Origin: Candidatus Nanopusillus sp.
Lineage (GTDB): Archaea > Nanobdellota > Nanobdellia > Nanobdellales > Nanobdellaceae
Length of the DNA: 21,944 nucleotides
NCBI GenBank assembly: GCA_046536775.1
Contig: JAWDMD010000006.1
Location: 1-21,944 of the forward strand
Reading direction: 5' to 3'
In this document: positions 5,284-15,651 of the stretch, one piece after another
Position numbering within the stretch: the stretch's first letter is position 1
How the letters are laid out: every line of letters begins with the position of its first letter
Translations under genes and position numbers: made by a program
Notes under the pieces: generated by a model
What the model was told of the DNA's origin: nothing
What the model saw: only the letters and a program-made list of their open reading frames with translations
Database searches by the model: none

Positions 5284-6203
5284 TCCTCAACATTATTCAT
5301 CTTTGCTTCAATATCTTTAAGATTTAATTTTTCTAACATTTCCTTATATCTGTTTCTTATTGTAACTTCAGTTATTCCAGCAACTTCTGCTATATCTTTT
5401 TGAGTCTTTTGTATTCCATGCTTTACACATGCTAAATATATTGCAGCTGCCGCAACTCCTGCTGGACCTCTGCCTGCAGTTATATCAGATTCCTTTGCTT
5501 TACTAACGATATCTATTGCAGTAGATATTACTTCTGGTGGTAAGTTTAATAATGAAGAGAATCTATGTACATATTCTGTAACATCTATTGGTTGTATTTT
5601 TATCTTTAATGCTTGTAATAAGTGCTTATATGTTCTTCCCAATTCTTTTTTATGTATATTTGATGCTTTAACTATTTCATCTATTGTCCTTGCAACATCA
5701 TGTATTCTACATGCTATATATGTACATGCAGCAATAACTGTTTCTACAGATCTTCCCCTAATTAACCCCTTTTCGACAGCATCTAAATATAACTTCAATG
5801 CTGTTTCTTCTACTTGTTTTGGTAATTGTAAGAATGAAGAAATCCTTTTTAACTCTTGCTGTGCTAATTTTAGATTTCTTTCATAAGAACTTGTAGATCT
5901 TTGCTGCCATTTTTTTAATTTTCTAGTTAGTGTAATATCTTCATCCTTTGATTCTGCTCTTCCAATTTCTGTTGATATCATACTTGGTATATTGGTATAT
6001 CTCATTGCACTACCAGTTCTTGATAATTTTTCTGCATCTTCTGAATTTATTGTCCTATTTTCCTTTCCTAAATATTGAACTTCTTCAATTACATATCCAC
6101 ATTTTGCACATACTAGTTCTGCTGTCTTCTCATTGTATATAAATTCTGTACCTCCACATACTGGACATTTCAATTCAGGATTTTTTATAAGCTTTTGGAC
6201 CAT
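5277..6203 (-). CDS. tfb: Transcription initiation factor IIB (TFB)
   Basis: Has the N-terminal zinc ribbon CPVCGGTEFIYNEKTAELVCAKCGYVIEE, a B-finger/linker, and two cyclin-fold repeats (RGRSVETVIAACTYIACR...; GRGPAGVAAAAIYLAC...QKDIAEVAGITEVTIRNRYKE). Confidence 0.95.
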   Translation of the reverse strand: MVQKLIKNPELKCPVCGGTEFIYNEKTAELVCAKCGYVIEEVQYLGKENRTINSEDAEKLSRTGSAMRYTNIPSMISTEIGRAESKDEDITLTRKLKKWQQRSTSSYERNLKLAQQELKRISSFLQLPKQVEETALKLYLDAVEKGLIRGRSVETVIAACTYIACRIHDVARTIDEIVKASNIHKKELGRTYKHLLQALKIKIQPIDVTEYVHRFSSLLNLPPEVISTAIDIVSKAKESDITAGRGPAGVAAAAIYLACVKHGIQKTQKDIAEVAGITEVTIRNRYKEMLEKLNLKDIEAKMNNVEEW

Positions 6204-9190: not shown

Positions 9191-12100
9191 ATGAGAAAAA
9201 TATATTTATTATCTTTTCTTTTATTTTCTTTATATTCAGTTTTTTCTCAAGGATATAATATATGGCATTCAGAATCTTTATATAAACCAGTAACATTTTT
9301 GGGTATAAATTTATTGGATAATAATCTATCTGTAGGTCAAACATTATATTATAATGTTTATATAAATTATAGAGATATTTATTATATACCTAATACATCA
9401 TTAGTAATACAAATAATACAAAAAAATGATAATAATAATATTTATCCATTCCAATTTACATCTGATAATGAAGTATATGAATATGTAATAAAAAATATAT
9501 ATTTACAACCGGGAGAATATTTAAACATACCATTAAATTATACAATTCCATATAATTTACCTTCTGGATATTATTATATTGTTGCATATTTATATACACC
9601 TCTAAGTGAAATAAATGGTTTGCCATTTATATATTATCCAGGATCATATCAAGAATTTTATATAAATAACCCAAATAATGTTCCAGAAATTTATATTATA
9701 AAAAATGATACATATTTAAGTTCCCCTGATTTATATACATGGGGTAGTTTATTATCATCATCAGGATATTATTATTCTTCATTAAGTGGACCTTCCGGTT
9801 ATGGTGTTTCAAACTATATTAATTTAACAGTTGGTGTATATTCGAGTATAAATACAAATGCTACATTGAATATTCTAATATCTCCATGGGATGATATTTT
9901 ATATAATCCAGTATATAATTATACTGAAAATGTACAATTAAATGAAGGATATAATACAATAAATATTCCATATATAAATGTTGCAACATTGAATCCAAAT
10001 GCATATTCATTAATAATAAACCTATTATATAATAATCAAACAGAATCAATATATAGATTAAGATTTATTGTTTTAGGTCCAACAACAAGATTAGATGGTG
10101 TTTATTTACAAGGTAATGGAAATTTAACATTTATAGTAGCACCATCTCCAGATCACTATACATATCCAGTTACCCAAAATGTAGTAGCAGAAGTTTATTC
10201 AAACACATTAGGATTTAAAGAAAATATATACTTAGGAAATATAAGTTGGAATAGTACACAATTTACTTATGTAAATCTACAATTACCATTAAATTCTACT
10301 AGCTTTGATTTATGTATAAACTTATATTCAAATAACAATTTAGATTATGGATATTGTACATATTATATTTTAAATCAATCAAATCAATATGGAATTCCAA
10401 TAAGTAATCTACTTTATGTAAATTATACAAACAATTACTTCTATATATGTTCAAATATTTCTGGAATATTAAATATAGGATATAATTCTGAATCAAACAT
10501 AATATATACTACAAATATAAATAATAATTGTTTAAATTATACATTGGGTAATGGGGTTTATTATATTTCCTTCTATTCATCCCAATATTCAAATCTATGG
10601 ATAATAAATAATACAGTAATACAAAACAATATAAGTAAAAATCAAACACAGCCAATAAATAATGTGCAAAATAATTATAATTATCCAAACTATTATTTGG
10701 TAATATTAATAATATTTATTGCAATAATATTATTTATGATACTAAAAAAGAAAAGATTATTTATCTTTGCATTAGTTTTATTACCTATATTATTTAATGT
10801 ACATTCTCAAGAACTATATCTAAGCTCAAATCAAATATGTACACCTTCAGATTCATTAAATATAACAACACAGGGATTTAACGGATCGGTAACAGTTTCT
10901 TATGAATTTTATAATTCATCGAATCCCTCAAATGTCTATGCAAGTAATACATATCAATACAATGGAAATATATACTATACATATAATTATACAGTATACT
11001 TCAATAATTTGCCATTAAATTTGTCAAATAATATAAATTCTACAATAATAGATTATAATATAACTGTTCAGAATTGTACAGGAGGTATTAAAAATTTCCA
11101 ATTGTCATCTTGTGATCAATATAATTATAATGGATCAATATATTTAAATTATCCATATTATTTTGAATATTATACAAATCCAATATATCAAGGATCAGAC
11201 GATGCAGGACAAATAATTCTAGGTTGTCCATCTTCAAATAATTTGTTAAATAATACATACTTTAATTTTACATTAATTTTACCAAATGGAACAAGTGTAG
11301 TTACTAGAACAAATTGTTCAGGATCTGGAGATCCAGATTGGGGTCAGAATCTATGTGATTTATATGTAAGTAATTATGATAACAATATTGGAAATTATAC
11401 ATATTATGGAGAATATTATTATAATAATATTTTATTTAATCAATCATTTATTAACAATCCATTACAGGTATTAGTAGCTAGTTCTGGAGAATTTACTACA
11501 GAATCATGTAAGCATGCAAGAACAATAACAAATACTAATTCAAATCCTTTATCTATAAGTTTCGCATATTATGGACCATATTCAGGATCATATTATACAT
11601 ACTATAATGGAATATATGTTATAGCACAAAATACTTCTGTAGGATTTAATGTAGGTTATGGATATAACTGGTTGTGTAGTGATGGCGTTACGCGTACTGT
11701 TACACCATCAGTTGCTGCTTGGTTATATAGTTCAAATCAATATTATAACCAAAATTCATTCCAGTATATACAAGGTATATCAAATCTACCATTTAACTTT
11801 ACACAATATAATATAGATAGAAATACTGTTTATAATACATATTCAAATGAAGGATTATTATTAATTCCACCAGAACATTTACCTTCAGGAAGTTCTTACT
11901 TTACTTTATATAATTTTAGTAATAATGCGGGTTATTATGCAATATATCAAGATTATGTAAAAACAGTATGTGATAATCCGACAGATTATATATGTGATGC
12001 AGATGGAAATTTATGTAATATTGGTCATATAGTAGGAGAGGCAGAAGGATGGTTACCAATATCCTCAGAACCAGGATATTATTTATTAGTAATAAATCCA

Positions 12101-13456
12101 AATGCTACTGTATATTTGCAAAATTTAACTTACTATCCATACAATTATAGTACAAACCCTGGTGATGCAATTTATATTGGTAATATAACAAATGTTGGAA
12201 TTGGAAATCTTACAGTAATTACAAATTGGGATCTCCCAAACAATTCAACTAGTTTCTTATTACAGCAACAGCAATATTCCCCATTATATATTTATTTCCC
12301 AACAAATCTATGTCCACATCAAAATTGTACAATAAATTATAGTGTAGCATATCAAAATGCATATGGATTAACAGTATATAATCCTGTAACATATTATGGA
12401 TATGTAAATATTAGCTGGGATACATTAAATATATATACTAATCCATCATTAACACAAATAACATATGGACAACCTTCAAATATAACCTTAGCGGTACAAA
12501 ATACAGGACCAGTACCTGCTGAAAATATATCTGTACAAAATGTATATTATGATCCAAATTGTATACAGGTATTAAATACTGGTAGTCAAATAGGTTCATT
12601 AAATACAAATCAAGTAGGTGACTTAAATGTAGAAATTAATATAACAAATCTATATTGTTCTCCACAAGATTATTATATAACATTTACAATTTATGGATGG
12701 AATACTTATATATATAATTATTCAATAATATTGCCAATAAGTTATATAATTTCTCCACCAAATGGAGCACAATTGCAATCAATAACAACATTTAATATAA
12801 CAGATGACAATGCACAAACATGTTATATAATATTTAATGGAGCACAATTCTCTAGAAATTGTAATTCAGATTTTGCATATCAACAATATATGTGTGCAGG
12901 ATCATTATGTAATACACAAATTCAATCAATAGATAATTATGCAGAGTTCTATGAAAATTATACATATTATAACTATTTAACAAATCAGTCATCAATAATG
13001 GGAATAGCCGTTGCAACAAATGTAATAAGTTTATATGTTGGACAAGAATATAAATATACAGTCTTAATAAAGAATTTAGTACCAACAAATATTCAATGTT
13101 CTCTAATACCAATTCCATCAACCACAAATGATAATGCTATTGTTACTAGTTATAGTATAAATGGAATAAATAGTAATGAATCTACTATAAGTCCTTATGG
13201 ATCTGCAGAATTAGATATAAATATTTTAGGAGCTTCTAGCGGTGTAAGTAAATTACTTTATGGTATAATATGTAAGTCTACATATGGTTCTTCATCATTT
13301 AGTACTCAAATTCCAGTATATGTATTTGGACCAAATAATATAATAGCAAACTATACGCAATCTCAAATAATAGTATCTGAGGAAGTATCTCCAACAAATT
13401 TAATTGGAATTGGAGGTTTAATATTGGGATTATTTGCTTTGCTTAATATAATCTAA
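9191..13456 (+). CDS. Giant secreted/anchored surface protein (S-layer-like or adhesin-like), possibly two fused precursors (aa 1-~521 and Met516-1421)
   Basis: 1421-codon ORF. It has an N-terminal Sec-type signal peptide MRKIYLLSFLLFSLYSVFS|QG, and the body is extremely rich in Asn/Tyr/Ser/Thr with dozens of N-x-S/T sequons. An internal TM anchor-KKKR-second signal peptide lies at 10691..10807, and a C-terminal TM anchor NLIGIGGLILGLFALLNII follows. The second half carries many Cys. No enzyme motifs found. Confidence 0.8.
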   Translation: MRKIYLLSFLLFSLYSVFSQGYNIWHSESLYKPVTFLGINLLDNNLSVGQTLYYNVYINYRDIYYIPNTSLVIQIIQKNDNNNIYPFQFTSDNEVYEYVIKNIYLQPGEYLNIPLNYTIPYNLPSGYYYIVAYLYTPLSEINGLPFIYYPGSYQEFYINNPNNVPEIYIIKNDTYLSSPDLYTWGSLLSSSGYYYSSLSGPSGYGVSNYINLTVGVYSSINTNATLNILISPWDDILYNPVYNYTENVQLNEGYNTINIPYINVATLNPNAYSLIINLLYNNQTESIYRLRFIVLGPTTRLDGVYLQGNGNLTFIVAPSPDHYTYPVTQNVVAEVYSNTLGFKENIYLGNISWNSTQFTYVNLQLPLNSTSFDLCINLYSNNNLDYGYCTYYILNQSNQYGIPISNLLYVNYTNNYFYICSNISGILNIGYNSESNIIYTTNINNNCLNYTLGNGVYYISFYSSQYSNLWIINNTVIQNNISKNQTQPINNVQNNYNYPNYYLVILIIFIAIILFMILKKKRLFIFALVLLPILFNVHSQELYLSSNQICTPSDSLNITTQGFNGSVTVSYEFYNSSNPSNVYASNTYQYNGNIYYTYNYTVYFNNLPLNLSNNINSTIIDYNITVQNCTGGIKNFQLSSCDQYNYNGSIYLNYPYYFEYYTNPIYQGSDDAGQIILGCPSSNNLLNNTYFNFTLILPNGTSVVTRTNCSGSGDPDWGQNLCDLYVSNYDNNIGNYTYYGEYYYNNILFNQSFINNPLQVLVASSGEFTTESCKHARTITNTNSNPLSISFAYYGPYSGSYYTYYNGIYVIAQNTSVGFNVGYGYNWLCSDGVTRTVTPSVAAWLYSSNQYYNQNSFQYIQGISNLPFNFTQYNIDRNTVYNTYSNEGLLLIPPEHLPSGSSYFTLYNFSNNAGYYAIYQDYVKTVCDNPTDYICDADGNLCNIGHIVGEAEGWLPISSEPGYYLLVINPNATVYLQNLTYYPYNYSTNPGDAIYIGNITNVGIGNLTVITNWDLPNNSTSFLLQQQQYSPLYIYFPTNLCPHQNCTINYSVAYQNAYGLTVYNPVTYYGYVNISWDTLNIYTNPSLTQITYGQPSNITLAVQNTGPVPAENISVQNVYYDPNCIQVLNTGSQIGSLNTNQVGDLNVEINITNLYCSPQDYYITFTIYGWNTYIYNYSIILPISYIISPPNGAQLQSITTFNITDDNAQTCYIIFNGAQFSRNCNSDFAYQQYMCAGSLCNTQIQSIDNYAEFYENYTYYNYLTNQSSIMGIAVATNVISLYVGQEYKYTVLIKNLVPTNIQCSLIPIPSTTNDNAIVTSYSINGINSNESTISPYGSAELDINILGASSGVSKLLYGIICKSTYGSSSFSTQIPVYVFGPNNIIANYTQSQIIVSEEVSPTNLIGIGGLILGLFALLNII

Positions 13457-14280: not shown

Positions 14281-14584
14281 TATAAAATATTTTGGTCCTA
14301 TTAGATCTTTTATTGGTTTAATGTTTCAATTACCAAAACAAGATACAATATACATTTTAGATCTAAAAAAAGATGTTGAAGATGGGTTTGTTCATACATT
14401 TTTCTGTTTAAAACCATTAGATATTTATCTATATGATTCAAATTTTGAATTGGTTCAATATTCTAAAAAATTAAAACCATTTAAAATTTTGGTTCCAAAG
14501 AAAAAATTTAGATATATAATTGAAGGTTTGGATATAAATGATGATATGTTAAGATATTCAATAAAATATTTAAAATCTTTGTAA
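14264..14584 (+). CDS. DUF192 (COG1430)-like protein; start codon uncertain
   Basis: FIGLMFQ...(16 aa)...[24 protein letters not shown]...LKPF...FRYIIEG parallels the DUF192 pattern (GLMxR...fxMxxxxxPLDiiFxDxxgxVv...xxP...yvlE). The track start at 14264 is TTG, overlapping rps27ae. The first ATG (codon 20) would cut into the conserved GLM motif, so TTG or another non-ATG start is plausible. Confidence 0.55.
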
Positions 14585-14956
14585 ATTATTGGTTAATATT
14601 TCTATCTCCACAAATAATTTATCAATCAAGCCCTTTACTTCTTTTATTCCATTATTTATTTGTCCAATAATTTCTATTTTTATATTTGGTGTTATATATG
14701 GATTTCCATTTATTTCTTTATAATATAGTGTTATATAATCTTTTATGCTCTCTAAAATACTTATTAATAATTTCATTGAATTTATTAAACTATTAATTTC
14801 TTGCATTTGATAATTATATAAATAGTAGGGGTTTTCATTAATATGTTTTTCATATTCATTTAAACTTTCTAATTGCAAAATATTATTATTTATTTGTGAT
14901 AATAAATTTCTGATTTGAGTTAATAATTGATTTTCTAAATCCTGAATATTATCCAT
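14570..14956 (-). CDS. Hypothetical coiled-coil protein
   Basis: 128-aa ORF with an ATG start and heptad-like Leu/Ile/Asn/Gln-rich N- and C-terminal helices. No family recognised. Its 3' end overlaps the convergent DUF192-like ORF by 15 nt. Confidence 0.5.
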   Translation of the reverse strand: MDNIQDLENQLLTQIRNLLSQINNNILQLESLNEYEKHINENPYYLYNYQMQEINSLINSMKLLISILESIKDYITLYYKEINGNPYITPNIKIEIIGQINNGIKEVKGLIDKLFVEIEILTNNLQRF

Positions 14957-14989
14957 AATTAATTAATATTTTAACTATTTTATATTTTT

Positions 14990-15040
14990 TCAGGGAGGAG
15001 GTGTATTCATCATTTATTCAGGCGCGCGCAACATCATCAT
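14990..15040 (-). ncRNA. C/D-box sRNA (2'-O-methylation guide), box-to-box core
   Basis: The minus-strand RNA reads AUGAUGA(C)-UGUUGCGCGCGC(12 nt)-CUGA(D')-AUAA-AUGAUGA(C')-AUACACCUCCUCC(13 nt)-CUGA(D). All four boxes match consensus exactly, and the guide spacers have the canonical archaeal 12-13 nt length. Both guides are GC-rich in an otherwise very AT-rich intergenic region. Confidence 0.85.
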
Positions 15041-15651
15041 ATAAATTTTAATATTCCTTCCTTTTTATCTCTATTTAATATTTCTTTTATTGTTTTAAAA
15101 TCTTGGTCGAAATATTCTCTCCATTCTTTATGATATAATGTAGATGCCGGATGTAATGTTGGGATTATTGTAATATTTTTTCCCCATTTATTTACTTTAA
15201 ATATTTTTCCTCTTAATTTTGTTATTGAAGAAAATTTTAATTTAAAATAATCAAAAATCCATTTTGTTGAATAATGACCTAAAGTTACTATTATATCTGG
15301 TTGAATTATTTCTAATTGTTTTTCTAACCAAAAAGAACACGATTTTATTTCTTCTTCTTCCGGTTCTCTATTTTCTGGAGGCCTGCATTTGACAACATTA
15401 GTAATATATACATTATTTCTATCCATATTTAATATATTTTTTATATTTTCAGTCAGTACTTGTCCGGCTTTTCCGACAAAAGGTTTTCCTTGTTTATCCT
15501 CTTCTCTACCTGGTGCTTCCCCTATAAATAATATATTTGAATTTGGATTACCATCTCCAGGAACATAATTTGTTTTAAATTTATATAAAGGACATCTTGT
15601 ACATTTCAATATTTGATTATTTACCTCTTCAATCATTTTTTCCTTATCCAT
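15037..15651 (-). CDS. udg: Uracil-DNA glycosylase, family 4 (4Fe-4S, thermostable type)
   Basis: Has the motif [22 protein letters not shown] and four cluster cysteines: CTRCPL, plus [22 protein letters not shown] with the family-4 spacing. Motif B HPAS is present in [11 protein letters not shown]. Confidence 0.9.

Follow-up and report, generated by a model that had tools for sequence, protein, structure and literature searches.

A candidate dual-guide box C/D sRNA at the stop codon of udg in Nanopusillus, with two predicted targets in 16S rRNA

A 21,944-nt stretch of DNA from Candidatus Nanopusillus sp., a tiny archaeon of hot springs (contig JAWDMD010000006.1 of assembly GCA_046536775.1; the whole stretch is called the window here), carries on its minus strand, from 15040 to 14990, a short element that we read as encoding a canonical archaeal dual-guide box C/D small RNA (sRNA) of ~51-60 nt, with both guides directed at 16S rRNA. 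We give this reading a probability of roughly 0.85, and the narrower claim that the element is a bona fide C/D sRNA appears close to certain. The core of the reading is supported by the geometry of the boxes, by conservation at 15 related loci, and by complementarity to rRNA in the N+5 register, in which the target nucleotide pairs with the fifth nucleotide of the guide, counted from box D' or D; motif, conservation, complementarity, and register can all be read directly from the DNA. The order of parts, AUGAUGA-N12-CUGA-AUAA-AUGAUGA-N13-CUGA, is box by box the one given in a first-pass annotation of the window:

15034 to 15040, minus strand: box C, AUGAUGA, holding the stop codon UGA (15039-15037) of udg, the uracil-DNA glycosylase (UDG) gene
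15022 to 15033, minus strand: D' guide, UGUUGCGCGCGC, 12 nt
15018 to 15021, minus strand: box D', CUGA, invariant in the alignment of relatives
15014 to 15017, minus strand: linker between D' and C', AUAA; variable and 2-4 nt long in relatives
15007 to 15013, minus strand: box C', AUGAUGA, invariant in the copies of Nanopusillaceae and Nanobdella
14994 to 15006, minus strand: D guide, AUACACCUCCUCC, 13 nt
14990 to 14993, minus strand: box D, CUGA in every copy except that of locus L177 (CAGA)

The outer boxes, RUGAUGA and CUGA, stand near the ends of the element, and spacers of 12 and 13 nt with a 4-nt linker have the geometry of archaeal C/D sRNAs, as in the 26 known from Nanoarchaeum equitans. 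A strict regular expression for the double C/D arrangement matched the window once, at this element, and gave no match in 2000 windows of equal composition drawn from a first-order Markov model; a single C...D pair is expected 0.59 times per window, and RUGAUGA by itself occurs 9 times where about 10 would be expected. The GC content of the window is 24.2%, and the description of the element as its only GC-rich intergenic spot holds, since the three 40-nt windows that exceed it (at 5443, 8160, and 18373) all code for motifs rich in Ala, Gly, Pro, or Cys. The RNA has almost no self-structure, with a minimum free energy of −0.4 kcal/mol that 199 of 200 shuffled sequences equal or better, which is expected of an RNA whose guides stay open.

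If the RNA works as is established for C/D sRNAs, boxes C and D would fold into a k-turn and boxes C' and D' into a k-loop, and L7Ae, Nop5, and fibrillarin would bind to these. The spacers, of 12-13 nt, would both pair with 16S rRNA, and fibrillarin would 2'-O-methylate the nucleotide opposite the fifth guide position. The D' guide would act in this way on the 3' strand of helix 30 (~G1231) and the D guide on the 5' strand of helix 34 (G1048). Since both targets lie in the 3'-major (head) domain, the ribonucleoprotein (RNP) may also hold the two strands during folding of the head, a chaperone role already proposed for dual guides. Expression, RNP assembly, methylation, and biogenesis are thus predictions here. 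Genes for L7Ae, Nop5, and fibrillarin were found neither in the window nor in the fetched loci, no dedicated genome search having been made; all three proteins are reported to be expressed in N. equitans.

The window UDG is 92-96% identical to those of eight Nanopusillus/Nanobsidianus genomes, including Nanopusillus acidilobi (CP010514.1) and Nst1, and the element is found at the stop codon of udg in each. More relatives were added by a protein search for UDG homologs and retrieval of their contigs. Conservation of the boxes at the 3' end of udg, which the first-pass annotation had made a test of its proposal, extends to 13 related genomes, as far as Nanobdella aerobiophila at 67% UDG identity. 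Neither N. equitans nor more distant archaea have the element at the 3' end of udg. The more divergent copies, with the identity of the neighboring UDG to that of the window, are as follows:

L172 and L173, 78-80%: both guides identical to those of the window, linker AAA
L174 (AP031373.1), 76%: GUGAUGA AGUUGCGCGCAU CUGA AUA AUGAUGA AUACACCUCCUCC CUGA
L176, 69%: D' guide GGUUGCGCGCGA, D guide CUCACCUCCUCC
L175 (N. aerobiophila, AP019769.1), 67%: D' guide GGCUGCGCGCGU, D guide as in the window
L177, 65%: AUGAAGA AGUUGCGCGCGU CUGA AU AUGAUGA AUGCAUCUCCUCU CAGA, 2.6 kb away, beside the S27ae cluster
L178, 61%: box C (AUGAAGA) and an unrelated D' spacer within the udg open reading frame (ORF); second half, CUGA UUA AUGAUGA ACGCACCUCCUCC CUGA, intact

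In L177 nothing of the element directly follows udg, and the relocated intergenic copy keeps both guides. When the copies were aligned across 11 lineages (alignment A1), the boxes and guide cores were invariant or nearly so, and the UGAUGA of box C was invariant in the udg-linked copies, with A or G as the preceding base. Variation is seen in the linker and the flanks, in the guides at their 5' ends, and in the nucleotide beside box D', which may be C, A, U, or G; it appears to be placed where the guide mechanism tolerates it. Among the nine closest genomes, 4 of 52 columns vary in the sRNA, versus 35 of 100 third codon positions of udg and 6 of 33 columns of the downstream spacer. These counts, with the boxes invariant across the 11 lineages, indicate purifying selection on boxes and guide cores.

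Predicted pairing with helices 30 and 34 of 16S rRNA

Rfam scans found no rRNA in the window or in the udg loci, so the targets had to be sought elsewhere. The supplementary alignments of Dennis et al. (2015) contain near-matches to both predicted targets in conserved segments of 16S rRNA, and of 90 stretches that a metagenome scan recovered by requiring both target strings at a 16S-like distance, nearly all were 16S genes. Those with flanks of 21-25% GC share GCUGAGAGGAGGUGCAUGGCUGC and CUACACGCGCGCAACAAUGG and are full-length archaeal small-subunit rRNAs; in one of them, L095, the proteins flanking the 16S gene cluster at ≥90% identity with proteins of N. stetteri and N. acidilobi. As the target strings had been part of the search pattern, complete 16S and 23S genes were also fetched independently by way of a neighboring ATPase gene, from a Nanopusillus-type locus (L179) and from AP031373.1 (L180), and the guides were scored on complete 16S and 23S rRNA. 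E. coli numbering was assigned by alignment to E. coli 16S rRNA with C1054 as anchor.

Positions 2-12 of the D' guide, counted from box D', pair with CGCGCGCAACA in the 3' strand of helix 30. These 11 contiguous and perfect base pairs constitute the unique best site in 16S and 23S rRNA, equaled by 1-2 of 1000 shuffled guides. The N+5 nucleotide is a G at approximately position 1231 (nt 1198/1199 of the lineage 16S), and the D' guide very likely directs a Gm there. Position 1 of the guide faces an A in the rRNA; being unpaired, it is free to vary and does so, and this accounts for the C of the window in place of the A of its closest relatives. The string that the first-pass annotation presented as the D' guide is really the target, and a complement was indeed found in the 16S gene, as ACGCGCGCAACA, with A rather than G as its unpaired first nucleotide. 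Applied to N. aerobiophila, whose D' guide is GGCUGCGCGCGU, the same pairing predicts G at N in 16S CACGCGCGCA-N-CAAUGG (..GCAGCA..).

In L178 (3622-3670), the udg coding sequence with its TAG stop takes in box C, here AUGAAGA, and all of the D' spacer, AAAAUUAGGAU. All likeness to a helix 30 guide is gone and the D guide is intact, which makes this locus, as far as its sequence tells, a natural example of a guide lost through overlap with an ORF, as has been described for Pyrobaculum.

The D guide pairs through positions 2-10 with 16S GAGGAGGUG, in the 5' strand of helix 34; the A at position 11 lies opposite C1054, and pairing resumes at positions 12 and 13. These 9 contiguous base pairs, starting at position 2, form its best site in 16S and 23S rRNA and exceed the 8-bp threshold of Lui et al.; both guides therefore have N+5 complementarity within the range of at least 8-10 bp. 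The N+5 nucleotide is G1048 (nt 1009/1010 of the lineage 16S), and the D guide probably directs a Gm at this position. As with D', the string first offered as the guide is the target string; 11 of its 13 nucleotides, 9 of them contiguous, occur in the 16S gene as AGAGGAGGUGCAU, so that the complement sought for this guide lies in helix 34. Two other targets were considered and set aside. Helix 45, suggested by the G1508 proposal of Seistrup et al., has the standard sequence GGUAGCCGUAGGGGAACCUGCGGCUGG in nanoarchaea and lacks GGAGGAGGUG, and helix 89 of 23S rRNA (E. coli 2481-2493) offers GGCGGGGGUGUCC, mismatched at position 3, no 23S site being better than helix 34.

The divergent copies are informative here. 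All udg-linked copies share the core CACCUCCUCC unchanged, and they differ at the 5' end of the guide (AUA, CU, or ACG). The L178 guide, ACGCACCUCCUCC, has G at position 11, which pairs with C1054 and extends the duplex to 10 contiguous base pairs, and the L177 guide, AUGCAUCUCCUCU, gains pairing at positions 1 and 11 and matches AGAGGAGGUGCAU at 13 of 13 positions (12 Watson-Crick pairs and 1 G·U), which is its top site in 16S and 23S rRNA and is equaled by 2 of 500 shuffles; both variants were scored on the Nanopusillus-type rRNA rather than on the rRNA of each lineage. The changes in the guide thus appear to move toward helix 34 and, in L177, away from the anti-Shine-Dalgarno (anti-SD) sequence discussed below.

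Several points weigh against a dual guide acting on 16S rRNA at both sites. At gathering thresholds Rfam recognizes no family in the window or in seven related loci. Comparison with its C/D covariance models had been put forward as a check on the element, and at relaxed thresholds (221 nt searched) the archaeal models do match it from end to end; the best, snoPyro_CD, reaches 24.2 bits (E = 0.0034) against a gathering score of 45, and the element thus stays below the threshold for membership. As these models were built from single genera (Pyrococcus, Sulfolobus) and the guides supply most of the score, we do not regard this as an argument against the C/D kind. The presence of the target strings in the rRNAs retrieved first is partly a matter of construction, and the scan for targets covered 16S and 23S rRNA. 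In AP031373.1, position 2 of the D' guide has changed and the 16S has not, leaving 9 bp; covariation of guide and rRNA is ruled out there, as the guide merely lost one pair. Finally, the 9-bp match of the D guide is equaled by ~5% of shuffled guides, and a second site of 8 bp exists at 16S nt 229.

These last figures, together with the mismatch at C1054 and the lack of a helix 34 guide among the 26 sRNAs of N. equitans, could mean that only the D' guide of a real C/D sRNA works, and that the D guide is an orphan or acts on a tRNA, 5S rRNA, an mRNA, or 16S nt 229-241. We consider this unlikely. An orphan spacer would hardly keep CACCUCCUCC invariant from Nanopusillus to Nanobdella amid variable surroundings, the L178 and L177 variants gain pairing with helix 34 at exactly the positions mismatched in this genome, no better site exists in the complete 16S and 23S genes, and other archaea also direct guides to the 5' strand of helix 34. 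A D guide acting on helix 34 accordingly remains part of the reading we prefer.

Two side observations concern the rRNA contigs themselves. In L081 (Ga0040875_100003, 1-1884; 1884 nt), a 16S 3' trailer (..AAUUCCGCUGCAAUCCCCAAAA) leads directly into a 5' leader (CUGCAGCGGAAUCUGCGG..). The 3' end of the 16S occurs there twice, at a distance of 1571 nt, and the two ends are only 85% identical; the contig looks like either a circular pre-16S rRNA intermediate, formed by bulge-helix-bulge excision and ligation, or a tandem artefact. In AP031373.1 (L180, 16259-16493, minus strand), a match to archaeal RNase P RNA lies downstream of the prolyl-tRNA synthetase gene at 85.5 bits, against a gathering score of 84, and none above threshold was found in the syntenic Nanopusillus-type locus L179. 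N. equitans is known to lack RNase P.

The udg locus and a possible route to the mature RNA

The neighbors of the sRNA leave little room between genes, as the following features indicate:

15037 to 15651, minus strand: family-4 uracil-DNA glycosylase gene, 204 aa (PF03167), named type-4 uracil-DNA glycosylase in the sources
14979 to 14984, minus strand: TATAAA, preceded by AAAAA directly after box D, its center 25.5 nt upstream of the ATG at 14956
14570 to 14956, minus strand: downstream ORF of 128 aa with no Pfam family, its promoter region adjoining box D

The last codons of udg and its stop run into box C, and the TGA at 15039-15037 ends the ORF, as the first-pass annotation had it. The exact sequence of this UDG is absent from the records. 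Synteny around udg is kept in L172-L176, where a gene of 127 or 128 aa without a Pfam match takes the downstream place. In 67 ORFs of Nanopusillus-type loci, TTTAWA boxes peak at −26/−27 from the ATG, and nanoarchaeal box A elements are known to lie ~26 nt upstream of transcription starts; the TATAAA at 14984-14979, which begins 5 nt after box D, is thus at the position typical of promoters in this lineage, and it is likely box A of a leaderless downstream gene. Both the earlier suggestion of a TATA region for that gene and the 33-nt distance from box D to its ATG agree with this.

No TTTAWA was found at about −26 upstream of box C, where GAUAAAAAGG is coding and unconserved, and box D is not followed here by an oligo-T terminator. 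Most C/D sRNAs of N. equitans have no promoter of their own and overlap mRNAs, and in Pyrobaculum 23 sRNA genes supply an upstream ORF with its stop through box C, the sense-strand sRNAs being thought to be excised from the mRNA under protection of the RNP (Lui et al. 2018, PMC6009581). The missing TTTAWA, the promoterless sRNAs of N. equitans, and the stop-codon cases of Pyrobaculum together favor cotranscription with udg, a plausible best inference that we would place slightly above even odds; the sRNA would then most likely be transcribed as the last part of the udg mRNA and be shortened to the core that the bound proteins protect. A link to udg is not obligatory for the family, however, since the L177 copy and sR15 of N. 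equitans, a comparable sRNA discussed below, each have a TATA-like element of their own.

An intimate link to udg could also be taken to mean that the element acts in cis, as a k-turn bound by L7Ae in the 3'-UTR (untranslated region) of udg that would serve stability, definition of the 3' end, or insulation from the next promoter. The fusion to the udg stop across many genomes and the missing oligo-T terminator would fit such a role, and L7Ae binding to k-turns in archaeal mRNAs has been described (PMC5539422). Yet a cis element needs no two GC-rich spacers of 12-13 nt complementary to 16S rRNA in the N+5 register, the L177 sRNA is detached from udg and intergenic with both guides kept, and sR15, which has the helix 30 target in common, is an independent gene with its own promoter. 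We therefore hold a cis-acting function to be very improbable, and a guide RNA acting in trans on 16S rRNA is the reading retained here.

Some further observations were made in the same loci. Across the 67 Nanopusillus-type ORFs and the window, a second TTTAWA peak falls at −9 to −12 from the ATG, which suggests that some first-ATG start calls lie 15-18 nt too far upstream; the udg ORF, with a second Met at codon 6, is an example of a possibly misplaced start. Elsewhere in the window, 9191-13456 on the plus strand encodes a 1421-aa protein rich in Asn, Tyr, and Ser with hydrophobic N- and C-termini; it has no Pfam family in the syntenic loci and presumably belongs to the surface or an S-layer of the symbiont. 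In L177, immediately upstream of the relocated sRNA and within an AT-rich intergenic region, a GC-rich segment of ~65 nt (6107-6175) weakly matches the Pyrobaculum H/ACA-type family RF02801 on the minus strand (23 bits against a gathering score of 49, E = 0.056); ARAGORN found no tRNA in it, and it may be another small RNA gene.

Likeness of the D guide to the anti-Shine-Dalgarno sequence

The D spacer contains CACCUCCU, the sequence of the canonical 16S tail, and the first-pass annotation had remarked on the SD-like GGAGGUG in its target as an unusual property. The GGAGGUG is there, but it is not unusual: the 5' strand of helix 34 is universally conserved and SD-like throughout the archaea, and it reads GAGAGGAGGUGCAUGG in all seven archaea aligned by Dennis et al., with one substitution in Methanococcus maripaludis, and the same in the 16S genes recovered here, and near-identical guides occur in Ignicoccus and Methanopyrus. 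The D guide resembles an anti-SD sequence because helix 34 contains GGAGGUG, so that any guide to this strand must resemble CACCUCCU.

The 16S rRNA of this lineage itself has no such tail. All Nanopusillus-type 16S genes examined run ...CUGCGGCUGGAUC-UAGUU... directly into a trailer complementary to the 5' leader, with neither CCUCC nor CACCUCCU, as seen in the following loci:

L095, 9444-9500: 16S 3' end without an anti-SD sequence
L179, 5540-5640: the same
L180, ~5530-5590: the same
L181, 872-950: the same
L081, L087, L107, L109, L110, L122, L127, L132, and L147: further 16S genes without it

The 16S genes of N. equitans and other members of DPANN (an archaeal group) from the same scan end in GGAUCACCUCCU. 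N. acidilobi has been listed as "SD-scarce," without the conserved CCUCC (PMC10783764), and the same loss is seen here in AP031373.1 and in a deeper lineage whose TGT is 71% identical. No SD-like motif (GGAG, GAGG, or GGTG) occurs in the 20 nt upstream of any of 119 ORFs of the lineage, and the mRNAs appear to be leaderless, given the TTTAWA boxes that peak 26-27 nt upstream of the ATGs. With none of the 119 ORFs carrying an SD sequence, mRNA SD sequences were discarded as targets of the D guide.

It is conceivable that the CACCUCCUCC spacer does more in Nanopusillaceae and Nanobdella than guide one methylation, and that it substitutes as RNA for lost functions in ribosome maturation or initiation. 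The setting for such a role is the loss of RsmA/Dim1 and, where examined, of the 16S anti-SD tail in these groups. The sRNA could be a trans-acting relic of, or replacement for, the tail, occupying the helix 34 strand during assembly of the 30S head, or its spacer could pair with rare SD-like sequences in mRNAs. If true, it would be part of an RNA-based stand-in for the lost functions, a prospect that we regard as a very long shot.

In its plainest form, the proposal would make the D spacer a functional anti-SD look-alike that replaces the lost 16S tail in trans or regulates SD-like mRNAs. The CACCUCCU in an invariant spacer core and a 16S gene that runs GGAUC-UAGUU... without CCUCC would be in keeping with it, but a mimic of this kind is hardly credible, as mRNAs that are leaderless, judging from the TATA boxes at −26, and devoid of SD motifs leave it nothing to pair with. 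The L177 variant CAUCUCCUCU departs from the anti-SD sequence while improving the match to helix 34, and Ignicoccus and Methanopyrus have the same type of guide alongside a normal anti-SD. As for a chance arrangement of box-like words in AT-rich DNA, RUGAUGA alone is indeed as frequent as chance predicts, but the full pattern in none of 2000 random windows, a perfect 11-bp complement in rRNA, and conservation at 15 loci where the identity of the neighboring protein falls to 61-67% leave it a negligible probability.

What remains is a functional RNA gene, on the reading preferred here, that threshold-based use of Rfam misses and that is conserved in the examined Nanopusillaceae and in N. aerobiophila, with two specific 2'-O-methylations predicted in the 16S head, at G1048 in helix 34 and G1231 in helix 30. 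It also offers an example of genome compaction in symbionts of roughly 0.6 Mb, with a stop codon inside box C and the next TATA box 5 nt past box D, and the explanation by helix 34 removes a tempting overinterpretation of the anti-SD likeness. The working of C/D sRNAs is understood no differently for it; this is another gene of a well-known kind, of modest interest.

Comparison with known guide RNAs

Both features that drew attention to the element, the stop codon in box C and the anti-SD-like guide, are accounted for by published observations. One comparison is with the sRNA of N. acidilobi proposed by Seistrup et al. 2017 (PMC5389701), which comes from the same group, is a predicted C/D sRNA, and would act on 16S rRNA. 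It is predicted to target A1408 (helix 44) and G1508 (helix 45) rather than G1231 and G1048; since the targets differ, and with the two compared by target rather than by sequence, we take the sRNA of the window to be a different gene. The arrangement at the stop codon has its counterpart in Pyrobaculum (PMC6009581), in which a same-strand sRNA slightly overlaps the 3' end of a protein gene and the UGA of RUGAUGA is the stop. Phylum, protein gene, and guides differ there, and unlike in Pyrobaculum, the overlap has here been kept across at least two families (Nanopusillaceae and Nanobdella), with the next TATA only 5 nt beyond box D.

The D guide has its counterparts in sR310 of Ignicoccus hospitalis (GAAUGCACCUCCU followed by CCGA) and sR120 of Methanopyrus kandleri (GAUGCACCUCCG followed by CCGA), both complementary to GGAGGUGCAU in the 5' strand of helix 34 (Dennis et al. 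2015). Their guides contain ...GCACCUCC... and look equally anti-SD-like, in unrelated lineages that keep the canonical 16S anti-SD. They differ in being D' guides, in pairing with C1054, and, on our reading of the sequences, in a register shifted by 2 nt, which places N+5 at G1050 instead of G1048.

The D' guide leads to N. equitans, whose sRNA15 (sR15) has been verified by RNA-seq with 25,200 reads and whose D guide, GAGAUGCGCGCGG followed by CUGA, is predicted to methylate Neq 16S-1197 in ACGCGmCGCAUCA (Randau 2012, PMC3491384; Dennis et al. 2015, PMC4644070). This is also a nanoarchaeote dual-guide C/D sRNA, and its guide, ..AUGCGCGCGG before CUGA, is directed, with the same N+5 register, to the 3' strand of helix 30, where its target is the homologous G; in the published alignment its target falls in the same column and register as the D' target of the window. 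At position 10, N. equitans has A in the guide and U in the rRNA, whereas this lineage has U in the guide and A in the rRNA, a compensatory difference. sR15 lies 1.1 kb from udg on the same strand, but it is not fused to that gene, has its own TATA-like element, and has other neighbors. Its partner guide is directed to the 5' strand of helix 30 and not, as here, to the 5' strand of helix 34.

The region around udg in N. equitans (L011 2342-15297; 316-329 kb of the genome) is itself rich in such genes, with five of the 26 known C/D sRNAs (sR12-sR16) within 13 kb. A relaxed regular expression recovered these five, and in the Nanopusillus-type DNA examined found no C/D sRNA other than the present family. 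One of the five, sR13, has a D guide, GAGGAGGUGAUA, that is complementary to the anti-SD tail and nearly the reverse complement of the D guide of the window.

We rejected positional orthology with sR15, with which the sRNA of the window shares one target, through its D' rather than its D guide, among different neighboring genes; orthology is thus unproven, and guide shuffling or convergence may account for the likeness. The helix 30 methylation site predicted here would have been kept between N. equitans and Nanopusillus, the guide responsible for it having changed places from one box to the other and covaried with the rRNA.

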